From Actinomycetota bacterium (GTDB lineage Bacteria; Actinomycetota; AC-67): a stretch of DNA of 64,000 bases. A model generated the notes under the pieces. The model was not told where the DNA came from. It searched no databases and saw only the letters and a program-made list of their open reading frames with translations. The stretch covers positions 87,405 to 151,404 of the forward strand of contig JBAZZY010000001.1 in the NCBI GenBank assembly GCA_041658565.1, read 5' to 3'. Shown here piece by piece: positions 1 to 26,098 of this stretch (position 1 is its first letter; each line of letters opens with the position of its first letter). The position numbers and the translations under genes were made by a program.

Positions 1-1957
<1,957 letters not shown>

Positions 1958-2029
1958 CGCTCACGCTCGCTATAGGGTGCTCAATGTGCCCGTAGATTGA
2001 CAAACGTGGGGCGCAATCCCCAAATAGAG

Positions 2030-2147
2030 TTTCGGTGGCCATGGCGGAGGGGTCACACCCGGTCCCATCCCGAACCCGGAAGTTAAGTCCTCCAGCGCCG
2101 ATGGTACTGCGCGGGCAGCTGCGTGGGAGAGTAGGACGCCGCCGAGA
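2030..2147 (+). rRNA. rrf: 5S ribosomal RNA
   Basis: ~118 nt with 5S hallmarks (CCCATCCCGAACCCGGAAGTTAAG...GCCGATGGTACTG...GGGAGAGTAGGACGCCGCCGAG), directly after the 23S 3' end. Confidence 0.9.
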
Positions 2148-2151
2148 CACT

Positions 2152-2177
2152 TCGAGGCCGGTCCAATTGGACCGGCC
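2152..2177 (+). terminator. rRNA operon terminator stem-loop (AGGCCGGTCCAATTGGACCGGCCT)
   Basis: Perfect 10-bp GC-rich inverted repeat with a 4-nt loop immediately after 5S; no strong T-run, as is common in high-GC genomes. Also the likely target structure of the downstream class-C group II intron. Confidence 0.6.
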
Positions 2178-2709
2178 TCGGCCTATGTACGCCGGGCATG
2201 TGCAATCGCTTGGAGGTGAAAGTCCTCTGGACGCGGAGGTGGTCCGTAGTCCGAGCCAAAGGCAACTGCGTCACCGCGAGGTGGGGTGGGGAGGAAGCCG
2301 GAGGCGAAACCCTGCACCGAGGAACACGAACCGCATATGAGGCGGGACGACCTGGATGAGCTGGCATGGCACAGCGAAGTCCGTACCCACCGAAGGGTCG
2401 TTCCGTAAATGCGGCGGGCGTAGGGGGAAAGTGGTTGTGCTTATCCCGGGAGATCTGCCGGAGTGTCAGAGCACAAGCATGGCTGAGGTCGAGCCATCGC
2501 CTGACCGCTGTCGCAGCGATGCGCCGGCGGACCCGGCAGAAGTCAGCAGAGGCCATAGTAGTGACGCTGTTCGTCGCGAAGGGCCGAACGTAAAGCGAAA
2601 GGACGATCATGTCCGGCTCGTGCAGACGCGCAAAGTGCAGCCAACCCGTCGTGGACGGGCCTGGGACGGTGCCGACGTGGTGAATCCACGGACCTCCGTT
2701 CCAGAGCAG

Positions 2710-4056
2710 ATGCGTTTGCCGGTGCCCGGCATCGAAGATCCTCACCCCACCCGTTCTCTGTGGGACGACGTTTTCGCCGTCTCGAACATCGAACGGGCGA
2801 TCCGACGTGTTGAGCGGAACAAGGGCGCTCCCGGTATCGATGGGGTGTCCACCCAAGAGCTGCGATCGCACTGGCGCACGCACTGGCCCGCGATCAATGC
2901 TGCGCTCGACGCTGGCGCCTACCAACCCGCACCCGTTCGCAGGGTGGAGATTCCAAAGCCCGATGGCGGCGTGCGAGTCCTGGGGGTGCCCACGGTGCAA
3001 GACCGTGTGATCCAGCAGGCTATCTTGCAGGTGCTCACTCCGATCTTCGACCCGACGTTTTCCGAGCAGAGTTTCGGGTTCCGTCCGAACCGCAGCGCGC
3101 ATCAAGCCGTGAATGCGGCCCGGCGTTTCGTTGAGGAGGGCTCGGAGGTGGTCGTGGAGATTGATCTGGATCGTTTCTTTGACCGGATCAACCACGACAT
3201 GCTCATGGCGAGGGTTGCGAGAAAGGTAAAAGACAAGCAAGTGCGCAAGCTGATCCGCTCTTTGCTGAACGCGGGCGTGATGGACGCTGGCGTGTGTGTG
3301 CGGACCGAGGAAGGAACCCCGCAAGGGGGGCCACTTTCGCCGCTGCTCGCCAATGTCATGCTCGACGATTTGGATCAGGAGTTGGAAAAGCGAGGGCATC
3401 GCTTCGTCCGTTACGCCGATGACTTAACGATCTACGTCGAAAGCGAGCGGGCGGGGCAGCGCGTCTTCGAGAGTATCTGCGGATTCATCGAGAAGCGATT
3501 GAAGCTCCGCGTGAACCGTTCAAAATCCAAAGTGGTTTCCGCTACGCGAGCGCATCTGCTCGGCTTTGGACTCTTGAAACGGAAAGGGACGGTTGGTGTC
3601 CGGATCGATTCGTTGGCAAAACGCAAGGCCAAGGATCGCATCCGGCGTCTGACATCCCGCAGCAGGGGTGTGTCGATGGAGCGCCGCATCCGCGAGGTCA
3701 ACGCCTACATTCGCGGCTGGGTGAACTACTTCGGCCTGTCCGACACGCCGAGCACTTTCGACGAACTCGATCAGTGGCTTCGCCGCAGGCTCCGGCAGGC
3801 TCGTTGGAAGCAGTGGAAGCGGATACGCACCAAGGTTCGGATGCTTCGATCTTTGGGGATTCCCAAGCAGAAGGCCTATGAGTGGGCCAACACGCGAAAG
3901 GGCTCCTGGCGCACCGCAGGTTCTGCCCCACTTCAGCGAGCGATGCCCAACGCCTATTGGTCAGCCCTCGGCCTTGTTGGCTTCACCGAGGCTTACCGCC
4001 GTGTCAGGGAGTCTTTGCGAACCGCCGGATGCGGGCCCGCATGTCCGGTGGTGTGA
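2710..4056 (+). CDS. ltrA-like: Group II intron reverse transcriptase/maturase
   Basis: RT domains 0–7 including FRPNRSAHQA, the YADD catalytic motif (FVRYADDLTIYVES), thumb/X and C-terminal maturase region. ATG at 2710 lies 16 aa upstream of the conserved LWDDV...RNKGAPGIDG block. The six-frame ORF extends to 2356, but that N-terminus is probably intron RNA domains I–III. Confidence 0.92.
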   Translation: MRLPVPGIEDPHPTRSLWDDVFAVSNIERAIRRVERNKGAPGIDGVSTQELRSHWRTHWPAINAALDAGAYQPAPVRRVEIPKPDGGVRVLGVPTVQDRVIQQAILQVLTPIFDPTFSEQSFGFRPNRSAHQAVNAARRFVEEGSEVVVEIDLDRFFDRINHDMLMARVARKVKDKQVRKLIRSLLNAGVMDAGVCVRTEEGTPQGGPLSPLLANVMLDDLDQELEKRGHRFVRYADDLTIYVESERAGQRVFESICGFIEKRLKLRVNRSKSKVVSATRAHLLGFGLLKRKGTVGVRIDSLAKRKAKDRIRRLTSRSRGVSMERRIREVNAYIRGWVNYFGLSDTPSTFDELDQWLRRRLRQARWKQWKRIRTKVRMLRSLGIPKQKAYEWANTRKGSWRTAGSAPLQRAMPNAYWSALGLVGFTEAYRRVRESLRTAGCGPACPVV

Positions 4057-4086
4057 GAGGGGCGGGGTAAACCCCCGCCCCCTACT
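4057..4086 (+). ncRNA. Group II intron domain V-like hairpin
   Basis: GAG-AGGGGCGGGG / TAAA tetraloop / CCCCCGCCCCT-AC, in the correct position directly after the RT ORF stop codon. Confidence 0.55.
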
Positions 4087-4215
4087 CGATTTCCTCCTCT
4101 GCGCTCTGGGCGCGTTGGGGCGGGCGCCGGATGAAGGAATCGGGCCATCGCGCGGCGAATCAGTTGGCAAACACGTCGAGGGCGGCTGAACCTGGCTGCT
4201 GCATCGGAGGGACGA

Positions 4216-4695
4216 ATGAGGAGCATAAAGACCTGGGGTCTAGTCGCATCGATTGCGCTGGTGGGATCCTTGGTACCCCTGGGCGCACACGCCGGCGAGT
4301 GGTGCGCCTCGAACATCGTGGTATTCAGCGGGGTGGATGCAGTCGGATCGGTGAACTCGAATGCCGCAGTGTGCATCGCGGAGGACGTCTGGGGCGAGGA
4401 TACGGGCTATGACGGCCGGATCATCAACCCGGGGTCCGATTTCGTGTCCGTGCGATACGTCAACCCGTATTCGCTCACGGATGAGACGCTCACCGCCTAT
4501 CTCGATGGGCTCGGGTTCGAGAACACGGAGATCACGCTCACCCGCGTGGAGTCCGCGACCGGTGAGGCAGTCTACGACTCCGAGCACCTTGACTTGGCCG
4601 CCGATGCCGTGGGGTGTATCACAGCGTCGATTCCGGCATTGATGCCGGATGAGGCGCCGAACTCGTTCCACACCGTGGGCGCTAGCTGCCCATAG
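4216..4695 (+). CDS. Small secreted protein (signal peptide, Cys-containing), hypothetical
   Basis: N-terminal MRSIKTWGLVASIALVGSLVPLGAHAGEW signal peptide with AHA cleavage site; ~135-aa mature region with 4 Cys; coding-like composition. Confidence 0.6.
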   Translation: MRSIKTWGLVASIALVGSLVPLGAHAGEWCASNIVVFSGVDAVGSVNSNAAVCIAEDVWGEDTGYDGRIINPGSDFVSVRYVNPYSLTDETLTAYLDGLGFENTEITLTRVESATGEAVYDSEHLDLAADAVGCITASIPALMPDEAPNSFHTVGASCP

Positions 4696-4709
4696 GTTCT
4701 CGTGATTCG

Positions 4710-4735
4710 ACGAAGGGCCGGCTCTGCCGGCCTTT
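4710..4735 (+). terminator. Putative intrinsic terminator hairpin (GAAGGGCCGGC-TCTG-CCGGCCTTTC)
   Basis: GC-rich 9–10 bp stem followed by TTTCGTGTT, directly after the stop of the 4216–4695 gene. Confidence 0.5.
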
Positions 4736-4736
4736 C

Positions 4737-5384
4737 GTGTTCCCGGCCGTGTCGAGCTGTCGTTCTGGGCCCATGTGTGCGCGCGAGCATTCGGGAGCCC
4801 GCGCGCGCCGGTACACTTGCTGTGTGAGACCCCCAATCAAAGACTCAGAGCGGTTGCCGCGCGCGCTGGAGTTGGAACTTCAAAGGGCGGCGAAGCCGGG
4901 GCGTGGCGCCGACGCAGTGGCGTGGATGACCAAGGCTCGTCGGGCGGAGGCGGAAGGCAGGCGAGAGGCCGCGTACCGCGCGGCATGTCGGGTGAAAGAG
5001 ATGGCGCCGCGTTCGTCGTCCGTCCGCCGGGTAATCGGCGTCGCGGCATGGCACACGGATCGTTGGCACGAGGCATCGCAGGAATTGCTGGCCTATCGTC
5101 GGTTCACGGGCGATTGCTCCTTCGACCCTGCGATCGCGGAGTGCTACCGGCGCCTTGGACGCCCGGAGCGGGCGAGGGACTTCCTGGCCCCCCTGAAGCC
5201 CGAAGATGTGTCGGCTCCGGTCTGGGCCGACGCACAGGTGGTGCGAGCCCGCAGCTTCGCCGACGTAGGGCGGGCGGAGGTTGGGCGAGATCTACTGGAG
5301 TCTGCGCTGCGAGCAGCACGCAGTCCCGCCGCGCGGGATCGCCTTCGCGGCGGCCTGGAGTCCCTGGCGGCGGCGCCGCAGTAG
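4737..5384 (+). CDS. Hypothetical protein (helical, Arg/Ala-rich); start uncertain
   Basis: Single long frame ending at TAG 5382–5384, directly abutting the downstream S51 peptidase start. No recognisable family motif. The first ~40 codons are of dubious coding quality. Confidence 0.4.
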   Translation: MFPAVSSCRSGPMCAREHSGARARRYTCCVRPPIKDSERLPRALELELQRAAKPGRGADAVAWMTKARRAEAEGRREAAYRAACRVKEMAPRSSSVRRVIGVAAWHTDRWHEASQELLAYRRFTGDCSFDPAIAECYRRLGRPERARDFLAPLKPEDVSAPVWADAQVVRARSFADVGRAEVGRDLLESALRAARSPAARDRLRGGLESLAAAPQ

Positions 5385-23974: not shown

Positions 23975-24513
23975 GCGATCTTCTCCGGCAGTTGGAGGCC
24001 ATCTTGTTTGTGGCGGATGAGCCCGTGCCGTTGGTGCAGCTCGCGCAGGTGACGGAGACGGCGCGAGACGCCGTTCACGCCGCACTCGAAAGCATGCGTT
24101 CGGAGTGCGAGAGCGCCGGACGCGGTGTTGTGGTCCGTGAGGTTGCCGGCGGATGGCGGATGTACACGCATCCAGAGGTCGCCTCGTATGTTGAGCGCTT
24201 CGTGTTGGCCGTGCAGCAGCCGCGGCTGACGCAGGCCGCACTCGAGACGCTCGCGATCATCGCTTACAAACAGCCGGTCAGTCGTCAGCAGATCTCGGCA
24301 ATTCGAGGTGTGAATTCCGACGGTGTCGTCACTACCCTGGAGTCCCGCGGGCTTGTGCGGGAATCTGGGCGGGACCCGGGACCGGGGCAAGCAGTGCTGT
24401 ACGGAACCACGCCGCTTTTCTTGGAACGAATGGGGCTCAGGTCGATTGACGAACTGCCTGCGATTGCCTCTATGTTGCCGTCTGGAGCAGTCGCCAATGA
24501 ACTCGAACCGTAG
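23971..24513 (+). CDS. scpB: Segregation and condensation protein B
   Basis: LEAILFVADEPV...AYKQPVSRQQISAIRGV...LYGTT winged-helix ScpB motifs. TTG start overlaps the scpA stop (TTGA). Confidence 0.85.
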   Translation: MSDLLRQLEAILFVADEPVPLVQLAQVTETARDAVHAALESMRSECESAGRGVVVREVAGGWRMYTHPEVASYVERFVLAVQQPRLTQAALETLAIIAYKQPVSRQQISAIRGVNSDGVVTTLESRGLVRESGRDPGPGQAVLYGTTPLFLERMGLRSIDELPAIASMLPSGAVANELEP

Positions 24514-26098
24514 ATCTTCCGGAAGCACTTCGGGTCGCACATCGAAACCCCCAACCGGCGGGGCTCGAAAACAAGTGCGCAAGCCGTCATCGACCGCCGG
24601 CCGAACCGGTGGCTCCACGGGGGCACCTCGAACCCCGGCGCGCGGCGGTGCCAGAGGTGCTGCCCCGTCCAAAGATCGAGCCGGCGGCGGCCGGCCGGCT
24701 CCGGCGCGCGATCGGAGCAGCCGACCAGACGCGAGACCTGCGCGCGCAGAGCGGACCGAGTTCGGCGCAGCGCCGCGCAGACCGACAGGTTCCAGACCGG
24801 CAGGTTCCAGACCGACATCAGCTTCGGGCAGGACCCCCGGGGGTGCGACCGGGCGTCCGACCGGGCGCACCACGCGGCAGCGACCGGCGCCCTGGGAGTC
24901 CGAGGGTGGATCCCGACCGAGTGGCCGAACCGGTGGCTCCACGGGGGCACCTCGAACCCCGGCGCGCGGTGGTGCCAGAGGTGCGGCCCCGTCCAAAGAT
25001 CGAGCGGGCGGCGGCCGGCCGGCTCCGGCGCGCGATCGGAGCAGCCGACCAGACGCGAGACCTGCGCGCGCAGAGCGGACCGAGTTCGGCGCAGCGCCGC
25101 GCAGACCGGCAGGTTCCAGACCGACATCAACTTCCGGTCGGACTACCGGGGGTGCGACCGGGCGTCCGACCGGGCGCACCACGCGGCAGCGACCGGCGCC
25201 CTGGGAGTCCGAGGGTGGATCCCGACCGAGTGGCCGAACCGGTGGCTCCACGGGGGCACCTCGAACCCCGGCGCGCGGCGGTGCCAGAGGTGCGGCCCCG
25301 TCCAAAGATCGAGCCGGCGGCGGCCGGCCGACTCCGGCGCGCGATCGCCGGCCGCCGTCGCCTCGGAACGAATCGGCGACCGGCGTGCGGTTGCAGAAGG
25401 TCTTGGCGGCCGGTGGAGTCGGATCGCGGCGGACCGCCGAGGAGTTGATCGACGCCGGTAGGGTCAGGGTCGACGGCGATGTTGTGCGCGTCCAAGGGAT
25501 GCGCGTGGATCCGTCGACGGCGCGAATCGAGGTTGACGGCGAGCGAGTGAACGTGTCGGCCGATCACGAGTACCTGATCATGAACAAGCCGTCGGGGGTT
25601 CTGACCACGGCGGACGATCCTCAGGGTCGTCCGACCGTGCTTGATTTGGTGAAGAGTCGCCGCCGGTTGTTCCCCGTGGGCCGGCTCGATGCCGACACGA
25701 TGGGGCTGCTCCTGCTGACCGACAACGGCGAGTTGGCCCATCGCCTGGCGCATCCTCGTTACGAGGTGCCCAGGACCTATGTAGCAGAGGTCAAGGGGAA
25801 CCCTTCGCCGGACGTGCTTGCGAGGTTGACCGAGGGGGTCCTGCTGGAGGACGGTCCGGCGGCCGCGAAGTCAGTTCGCCTGATGCGAACCACCGGCGGC
25901 CGTTGTCAGGTAGAGATCGTCATGACCGAAGGGCGCAAGCGCGAAGTTCGCCGGATGTTTGATGTCGTGGAGTGCCCGGTTGTCTACCTCGCACGAGTTG
26001 CCTTCGGCACGCTTCGACTGGATGATCTTCCTTCAGGGAAGACCCGCTCCTTGACCCCTGCGGAAGTTGGCCGCCTTCTTGAGTCGGTGGGACTCTAA
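24497..26098 (+). CDS. rluB: Pseudouridine synthase RluB/RsuA family with long repetitive Arg/Pro/Gly-rich N-terminal extension
   Basis: C-terminal S4 domain (RLQKVLAAGGVGSRRTAEELIDAGRVRVDG) plus catalytic domain (MNKPSGVLTT...GRLDADTMGLLLLTDNGELAHRL). The N-terminal ~290 aa are a tandem-repeat disordered region. Confidence 0.88.
   Translation: MNSNRRSSGSTSGRTSKPPTGGARKQVRKPSSTAGRTGGSTGAPRTPARGGARGAAPSKDRAGGGRPAPARDRSSRPDARPARAERTEFGAAPRRPTGSRPAGSRPTSASGRTPGGATGRPTGRTTRQRPAPWESEGGSRPSGRTGGSTGAPRTPARGGARGAAPSKDRAGGGRPAPARDRSSRPDARPARAERTEFGAAPRRPAGSRPTSTSGRTTGGATGRPTGRTTRQRPAPWESEGGSRPSGRTGGSTGAPRTPARGGARGAAPSKDRAGGGRPTPARDRRPPSPRNESATGVRLQKVLAAGGVGSRRTAEELIDAGRVRVDGDVVRVQGMRVDPSTARIEVDGERVNVSADHEYLIMNKPSGVLTTADDPQGRPTVLDLVKSRRRLFPVGRLDADTMGLLLLTDNGELAHRLAHPRYEVPRTYVAEVKGNPSPDVLARLTEGVLLEDGPAAAKSVRLMRTTGGRCQVEIVMTEGRKREVRRMFDVVECPVVYLARVAFGTLRLDDLPSGKTRSLTPAEVGRLLESVGL
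24601..25335 (+). repeat. Near-perfect tandem repeat, ~324 + ~309 + ~100 bp (≈2.3 copies), inside the rluB 5' coding region
   Basis: CCGAACCGGTGGCTCCACGGGGGCACCTCGAACCCCGGCGCGCGG... recurs at 24601, 24925 and 25234. Copy 1 contains an extra internal 15-bp duplication (CAGGTTCCAGACCGG ×2). Confidence 0.9.

Follow-up and report, generated by a model that had tools for sequence, protein, structure and literature searches.

What is the element of almost two kilobases that lies directly behind the ribosomal RNA operon near the left end of this stretch of DNA, how did it come to be there, and can it still move? The stretch, called the window below, comprises 64,000 nucleotides of contig JBAZZY010000001.1 (positions 87,405 to 151,404 of the forward strand; assembly GCA_041658565.1) from an uncultured, high-GC actinobacterium whose operon at this place is of the 23S-5S type. 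Sequence comparison leads us to conclude with high confidence that window positions 2187–4090 are a full-length bacterial group IIC intron retroelement, made up of a compact ribozyme and an endonuclease-less reverse transcriptase (RT)/maturase, inserted behind the hairpin that follows the 5S rRNA gene. The intron is in the sense orientation relative to the operon, and the region should carry annotation as one intron. It is an ordinary member of class C in a position that is normal for the class, and its protein is already annotated at NCBI. The original prediction, made from the letters of the window, had described a class-C-like group II intron of about 1.9 kb with an RT/maturase in an intact frame without frameshifts, right behind the rRNA operon, and the analysis bears out each of these features.

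Where does the intron begin and end? Relatives were gathered from genomes and metagenomes, and the ends of their ribozymes were placed by nhmmer. Among introns at unrelated sites, the shared similarity starts at GUACG (GUGYG in the Firmicutes) and stops at ..CUACYCGAU. In the window these limits enclose 1904 nt and place the 3' end at 4090 (..CUACUCGAU), 50 nt earlier than the end at 4140 that had been predicted. The 5' end is matched by an intron-less relative, L118, in which homology to the window breaks at 2186–2188.

What makes this a group II intron? Rfam covariance models, which the original prediction had proposed as a check, gave three group II matches above the gathering score, covering domains V and VI as well as domains I–III. 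Domain limits were taken from the Rfam structure lines and from minimum free energy (MFE) folds, those of domains II–IV being approximate (Table 1). The Intron_gpII model, which represents domains V and VI, matches at 4020–4090 (43.6 bits; gathering score 40), and the open reading frame (ORF) of the RT/maturase lies between the matches for domain III and domain V, that is, in domain IV, where a group II intron carries it. Base pairing is strictly maintained at the 3' end of the ribozyme. All 12 pairs of domain V are kept in 16 introns, five of them with compensatory changes, and with the basal part of domain VI included, 18 of the 18 tested pairs are kept in all 16 introns (288/288 cells) and six have changed on both sides; when the partner columns were slid as a control, 32–58% were paired. 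Likewise, the basal pairs of domain VI are 100% kept, its CUAC is invariant across the 16 introns, and the bulged A4084 is the seventh base from the intron 3' end. Two details of the original prediction must be corrected at this point. The hairpin at 4057–4086, which had been read as a domain V with a GNRA-type loop, is domain VI with the branch point A4084, and its loop is not GNRA; domain V does not follow the stop codon of the ORF and instead occupies 4022–4051, inside the last codons.

The assignment to class C draws on the ribozyme as well as the protein. Group IIC ribozymes are small, have a domain V distal stem that is 2 bp shorter than in IIA and IIB introns, carry CGC in place of the AGC triad and a conserved AGGAA in the epsilon' region, pair the exon-binding site EBS1 with the intron-binding site IBS1 over 3–4 bp, possess EBS3 as in IIB introns and lack EBS2; at their insertion sites a terminator stem-loop stands in the place of IBS2, 3–11 nt upstream of the splice site (PMC1702495). 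The window intron has a 3-bp distal stem in domain V (4 nt fewer than the Rfam consensus), the CGC triad, an AGGAA in the epsilon' region of domain I (2292–2296) that lines up with the same motif in the Rfam D1D4-3 consensus, an EBS1–IBS1 pairing of 4 bp, an EBS3, and a hairpin 6 nt upstream. The IIC-attC sublineage was considered and set aside: the target is a perfect hairpin right after the 5S rRNA gene and is conserved in intron-less relatives, the check for integron context having covered the neighbouring genes only.

Does the protein agree with the ribozyme? A single uninterrupted frame extends over 2356–4056, with the YADD motif at 3412–3423. The only Pfam domains are RVT_1 and GIIM, and with 419 bits the NCBIfam model TIGR04416 exceeds its cut-off of 300. 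The best match among solved structures is the GsI-IIC RT (E 2.7e-154), which aligns almost end to end; the next are 7uim, also a class C RT/maturase (E 1.3e-104), and then two RT fragments, and the non-IIC maturases LtrA (5e-38) and 6me0 are weaker, both at about 1e-36 to 1e-38. The class C placement of the protein rests on this similarity to solved structures. An endonuclease domain was not found, either by Pfam or in the 14 residues that remain past the alignment with the GsI-IIC RT. The last ~11 codons of the gene are domain V, and since domain V sits there, it encodes the protein tail ..TAGCGPACPVV.

Could the gene belong to a retroelement of another kind, such as a retron, a diversity-generating retroelement or a defence RT, or to an intron of another class (IIA, IIB, D/E/F)? 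We give this almost no chance of being right. The protein does show weak similarity to retron and Drt models, and some PDB depositors labelled IIC RT fragments 'retron-type', but the retron and Drt models score 15–92 bits against cut-offs of 200–600 (for example, Retron St85 92 against 235 and Drt3a 56 against 200), whereas TIGR04416 passes its cut-off. In addition, ribozyme domains lie on both sides of the ORF, and the IIC-specific domain V, the short EBS1 and the hairpin target all argue for class C, as does the lack of an EBS2 candidate above chance in what is a weak test. A grouping of the RT with retrons or diversity-generating retroelements, which the original prediction had named as the outcome that would speak against an intron, is not what we find: the protein is closest to the group II maturases.

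The protein probably starts either at ATG 2710 (448 aa) or at GTG 2680 (458 aa). An identical 448-aa protein from an Actinomycetota metagenome-assembled genome (MAG), MFA5889420.1, starts at ATG 2710 and bears the NCBI name 'group II intron reverse transcriptase/maturase'; GTG 2680 is the start codon that is conserved in L004, a more distant relative. The part of the frame that lies further upstream (2356–2709) runs through ribozyme domains I–III and is included in a 566-aa gene call in JGI/ENA; this part is open because of the high GC content. A 438-aa ORF on the opposite strand (2083–3399, − strand) also overlaps the intron. Both the 566-aa call and the antisense ORF look like high-GC artefacts and not like genes.

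How does the intron recognize its exons? EBS1 is AUGG (2366–2369), the four middle bases of a domain I loop that follows the family pattern GC-NNNN-CA (GC-AUGG-CA in the window), and it pairs over 4 bp with the last four bases of the 5' exon. This assignment is supported by covariation: over 34 pairs of intron and site, 116 of 136 positions are pairable, and permuting the pairs gave a mean of 71.7, with 0 of 20000 permutations reaching 116. Similarly, EBS3 is A2408, the fourth base of the domain I motif GUA-N-AUG (GUAAAUG in the window), and its partner is the first 3' exon base. At 33 sites the EBS3–IBS3 combination is A-U in 19, G-U in eight and G-C in six, with no mismatches, and EBS3 is G at all six sites in which IBS3 is C. 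A search for EBS2 found a longest complementarity between the exon (2147–2182) and domain I of 6 nt, no more than in shuffled sequence, although the test is weak.

The structural target motif of the intron is the hairpin that begins five bases past the end of the 5S rRNA. It is kept, with compensatory changes, in four related loci (L118, L119, L120 and L004), and from its position and conservation we presume it to be the terminator of the 23S-5S operon. Insertion just 3' of such a hairpin is typical of class C, as had been pointed out in the original prediction; the hairpin spans 2153–2180 (not 2152–2177), and the first intron base, G2187, lies 6 nt past it (not 20–40 nt). Related introns behave in the same way. 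At 58 of 58 distinct related sites, a hairpin ends 0–13 nt upstream of the intron, and the 46 nt upstream have a mean MFE of −20.5 kcal/mol, whereas control windows taken at these loci average −7.9 ± 4.5. Only two of these 58 sampled sites, those of the window and L004, lie behind a 5S rRNA gene. To look within the same species for empty sites and additional copies, a 26-nt hairpin sequence was searched exactly in JGI metagenome contigs, with 0 matches.

Table 1. Positions in the window of the intron, its parts and the adjoining host features (MFE, minimum free energy).
Feature	Position	Strand	Basis or remark
23S rRNA gene, 3' two-thirds, cut by window edge	1–1959	+	Rfam LSU_rRNA_bacteria, 1781 bits, model 1081–2925
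5S rRNA gene	2031–2147	+	Rfam 5S_rRNA, 103.7 bits
Perfect 12-bp GC-rich hairpin, CGAGGCCGGTCC-AATT-GGACCGGCCTCG	2153–2180	+	Sequence; MFE −28.1 kcal/mol
IBS1 (CUAU), last 4 nt of 5' exon	2183–2186	+	Pairs with EBS1 AUGG
Whole group IIC intron, 1904 nt, 5' GUACG to GAU 3'	2187–4090	+	Limits of the similarity shared with introns at unrelated sites
Domain I	2187–2452	+	Rfam group-II-D1D4-3 at 2270–2439, 132.7 bits; MFE fold closes 2192–2196 with 2445–2449
Domain II (approximate)	2454–2540	+	MFE fold; first hairpin of Rfam group-II-D1D4-1 at 2505–2530
Domain III (approximate)	2551–2585	+	Rfam group-II-D1D4-1 at 2505–2584, 69.6 bits; MFE fold
Domain IV (approximate), bears most of the ORF	2586–4015	+	Between the domain III and domain V matches
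RT/maturase, 448 aa	2710–4056	+	Pfam, TIGR04416, start-codon analysis, similarity to structure set
Domain V, 30 nt, CGC triad 4023–4025, 3-bp distal stem, loop GGCC	4022–4051	+	Rfam Intron_gpII alignment
Domain VI, bulged branch-point A4084	4054–4088	+	Rfam Intron_gpII alignment; MFE fold
IBS3 (U), first base of 3' exon	4091	+	Pairs with EBS3 A2408

When did the intron arrive? The locus L004 poses the question most sharply. Its gene order is that of the window: 23S, 5S, hairpin, IIC intron, TPR protein, metallo-beta-lactamase (MBL) hydrolase, DUF1015 protein and HAD hydrolase, and its intron also lies 6 nt past the hairpin. These correspondences could mean that the intron predates the split between the window and L004 and has since been inherited vertically at the rrn terminator, fixed and perhaps domesticated. 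We regard this as very improbable. The rRNA genes of the two loci are 80–86% (23S) and 89% (5S) identical, and while the four flanking host proteins are only 33–45% identical (MBL hydrolase 45%), the intron proteins are 68% identical. The window protein is closer still (74–83%) to proteins of introns at unrelated sites, for example that of L001 behind groES. The exon-binding sites differ as well: EBS1 of L004 is AACGC and pairs with its own exon GCGUU, in place of the AUGG and CUAU of the window.

The strongest argument comes from relatives that are much closer to the window than L004 is. A search with the MBL protein of the window yielded closer relatives, and three of the loci were fetched: L118, L119 and L120, whose MBL proteins share 86%, 76% and 73% identity with that of the window, as against 45% for L004. 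All three share the downstream gene order of the window, L118 and L119 most strongly, and in all three the 5S rRNA gene is followed by the hairpin and by (C)CTAT (CCTTAT in L120), with no intron. Because these orthologous sites are empty, the insertion is fairly recent. In particular, L118 matches the window over 2058–2188 at 97.7% identity and becomes homologous again at 4765, and since its site is empty, the intron entered the lineage of the window after the split from that of L118. This patchy pattern of presence and absence also speaks against vertical inheritance, and the intron in L004 probably represents a separate insertion into the orthologous hairpin. A possible remnant of a deleted intron in L118, where GTGTGCCCAG after the site resembles a IIC 5' end, was examined and rejected: this sequence is homologous to native sequence of the window at 4779 (GTGTGCGCGCGAG..), downstream of the intron.

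Did two introns then choose the same place for a reason? Two different introns, with proteins of 68% identity and different EBS1 sequences, occupy the orthologous site, and three intermediate relatives are empty. One reading of these facts, which we think improbable, is that IIC introns of this actinobacterial branch insert by preference at the 23S-5S hairpin. That two distant lineages both have an intron at this rrn hairpin may reflect chance or a mild target preference. If the recurrence holds true, the targeting of IIC introns would have a bias that stems from heavy transcription or from the strength of the rrn hairpins.

The window differs from L118 by more than the intron. A further 688 nt (4091–4778) are present, so that the whole extra block measures 2.6 kb, and this block is bounded by GGCCTAT (2180–2186) and GGCCCAT (4772–4778). 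The 688-nt segment contains a 159-aa ORF (4216–4695) with a signal-peptide-like start and no Pfam match, and it has its own hairpin at ~4706–4737. L119 and L004 also lack the gene at 4216–4695, and in a search for signs that this gene travels with related introns, it was absent from every other locus compared. The 688-nt segment is probably an unrelated gene gain or loss. In a weaker variant of the preferred-site idea, the intron and the segment with its small secreted-protein gene might have arrived as one unit.

Can the intron still move? Several observations weigh against an intact and mobile class C intron at an rRNA terminator. The start codon is ambiguous between 2680 and 2710. The tetraloop of domain V is GGCC and not GNRA. 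An nhmmer search of the window detected neither a second copy of the intron nor pieces of one, leaving a single copy, and the protein collection contains no second protein at ≥90% identity (the protein is the single member of its cluster), so nothing points directly to recent multiplication in this genome. Lastly, a simple consensus scan for T-run terminators calls none at the hairpin, which has no clear U-tract. In the intron-occupied state no terminator is called because no T-run follows; the insertion parts the hairpin from its pyrimidine-rich tail UUCCUCCUCU, and the consensus scan calls no terminator either way. Of the terminator described in the original prediction, the hairpin stands, and the label 'terminator' is an inference from its position and conservation.

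The single copy, the single cluster member and the unusual domain V loop would suit an element that is structurally intact and yet functionally dead or able only to splice, a recent insertion that is immobile in its present host. We consider this a real but minor possibility. The ORF is uninterrupted and retains YADD, and its product matches an active RT from one end to the other; the ribozyme domains score above the Rfam thresholds; and both EBS1–IBS1 and EBS3–IBS3 fit the present site. Moreover, close relatives with the same GGCC loop in domain V occur at several different sites. Recent movement among the relatives is indicated by an identical protein at two different sites (L002 and L003), and one MAG has two occupied sites (L006 and L007). 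The suggestion in the original prediction that the element is 'live or recently live' therefore receives indirect support: all parts are intact, and the same site is empty in three closer relatives.

We propose the following course of events for an active IIC intron at this site, the steps being modelled on established knowledge of the class (PMC1702495, PMC4424553, PMC7306698). First, transcription of the intron would depend entirely on polymerase reading past the rrn hairpin, and the protein would be translated from this read-through transcript, bind its own RNA and promote splicing. Second, the resulting RNA-protein particle would recognize a DNA stem-loop together with the short IBS1 and IBS3 pairings and reverse-splice into the recognized DNA strand. 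Finally, the inserted RNA would be copied into DNA from a primer provided by the replication fork, since the protein has no endonuclease. A position behind a terminator would cost the host little. The GC skew of the + strand is positive across the first 40 kb of the window, which fits, as weak evidence, an rrn operon and intron that are co-oriented with replication. From ~+0.10 at the left end, the skew declines along the window, changes sign near 45–50 kb and reaches −0.05 at the right; this shift (40000–64000) may reflect gene orientation or a replication landmark.

The comparison of loci also brought out features of the host region. The window begins within the 23S gene, and what can be said of linkage to 16S therefore rests on L119 (13040–17936) and L120 (13253–20518). 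In both, tyrS lies upstream of 23S with no 16S between them (L120 also has a CAP-domain gene there), which suggests that 16S is separate from the 23S-5S operon in this lineage. In L120 (13369–18075) the 23S-5S spacer measures ~1.09 kb and the 23S match spans 3.6 kb against a model of 2.9 kb; something is inserted in or beside the 23S gene, and no Rfam family reaches threshold there. In L004, whose IIC intron lies behind 5S, the 23S gene (44–4205) spans 4.16 kb and holds a 218-aa LAGLIDADG_1 ORF (2287–2943), presumably the homing endonuclease of a group I intron within the gene. Elsewhere in the window, at 24599–25435, we note three tandem copies of a unit of 309–324 nt, the later copies being 98% and 68% identical to the first. 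They form a repeated extension within the N-terminal half of a 591-aa ORF (24323–26098), whose C-terminal half has an S4 domain and a pseudouridine synthase domain.

What does the locus add? New here are the exact splice sites, the exon-binding sites and the empty-site comparison for a IIC intron of an uncultured high-GC actinobacterium; the significance goes little beyond annotation. That a distant relative also carries an intron behind its orthologous rrn hairpin offers one minor observation on the target choice of IIC introns, and our literature search found nothing specific on IIC introns behind rRNA operons in the library covered. Group IIC introns have been a source of useful thermostable or processive RTs, such as the GsI-IIC RT and Marathon RT, and for this reason an actinobacterial member at ~56% identity could be of interest to enzyme developers.

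How does the intron compare with known systems? Among actinobacteria it has relatives (L001, L002/L003, L005, L059 and L060) whose introns are 1896–1908 nt long, encode proteins 74–83% identical to that of the window, and share the GUACG start and the same domain V; unlike the window intron, they stand behind the hairpins of other genes, and their EBS1 sequences fit those sites. Two further relatives deserve mention. In L095 (~1725–1780), a IIC intron starts directly past domain VI and the 3' end (..CCUACUCGAU) of another IIC intron, and the domain VI hairpin of the upstream intron appears to be the target stem-loop, giving a tandem insertion. In L057 (2727–3261; Alkalihalobacillus sp. BA299), there is an ORF-less IIC relative of 535 nt whose ends look intact; a hairpin lies upstream of it, and its EBS1 (AUGA) fits the exon sequence UCAU.

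For exon recognition, the reference IIC intron is B.h.I1 of Bacillus halodurans (PMC1702495), and the window shares with it the small size, the short distal stem and CGC triad of domain V, the AGGAA, the EBS1 and EBS3 pairings and the stem-loop upstream of the splice site. Unlike B.h.I1, the window intron has an rRNA operon as its host gene, and the sequence that trails the hairpin is no U-run. The closest well-studied protein is that of GsI-IIC from Geobacillus stearothermophilus (PDB 6AR1): residues 17–434 of the window protein align to 3–419, both have the RT and X/thumb domains, and both lack an endonuclease domain. The GsI-IIC-like protein of Geobacillus zalihae (L008) is 56% identical to that of the window, and related introns from Firmicutes show this domain V/VI architecture and position past a hairpin as well. 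The window intron differs from GsI-IIC in its high-GC actinobacterial host, in the 14-residue C-terminal tail encoded by domain V, in the compensatory changes within domain V and its loop (GGCC in place of GAAC), and in its EBS1, AUGG. Finally, there is O.i.I1 of Oceanobacillus iheyensis, the ORF-less IIC ribozyme with a crystal structure, which is similar in kind to the intron in L057. We take its 5' end, GGAACACGAAC..CAUAUGAGGC core, CAGAAGUCAGCAGA junction and domain V to be nearly the same as those of the window, the differences presumably being that the window intron has a full ORF and a longer domain II.

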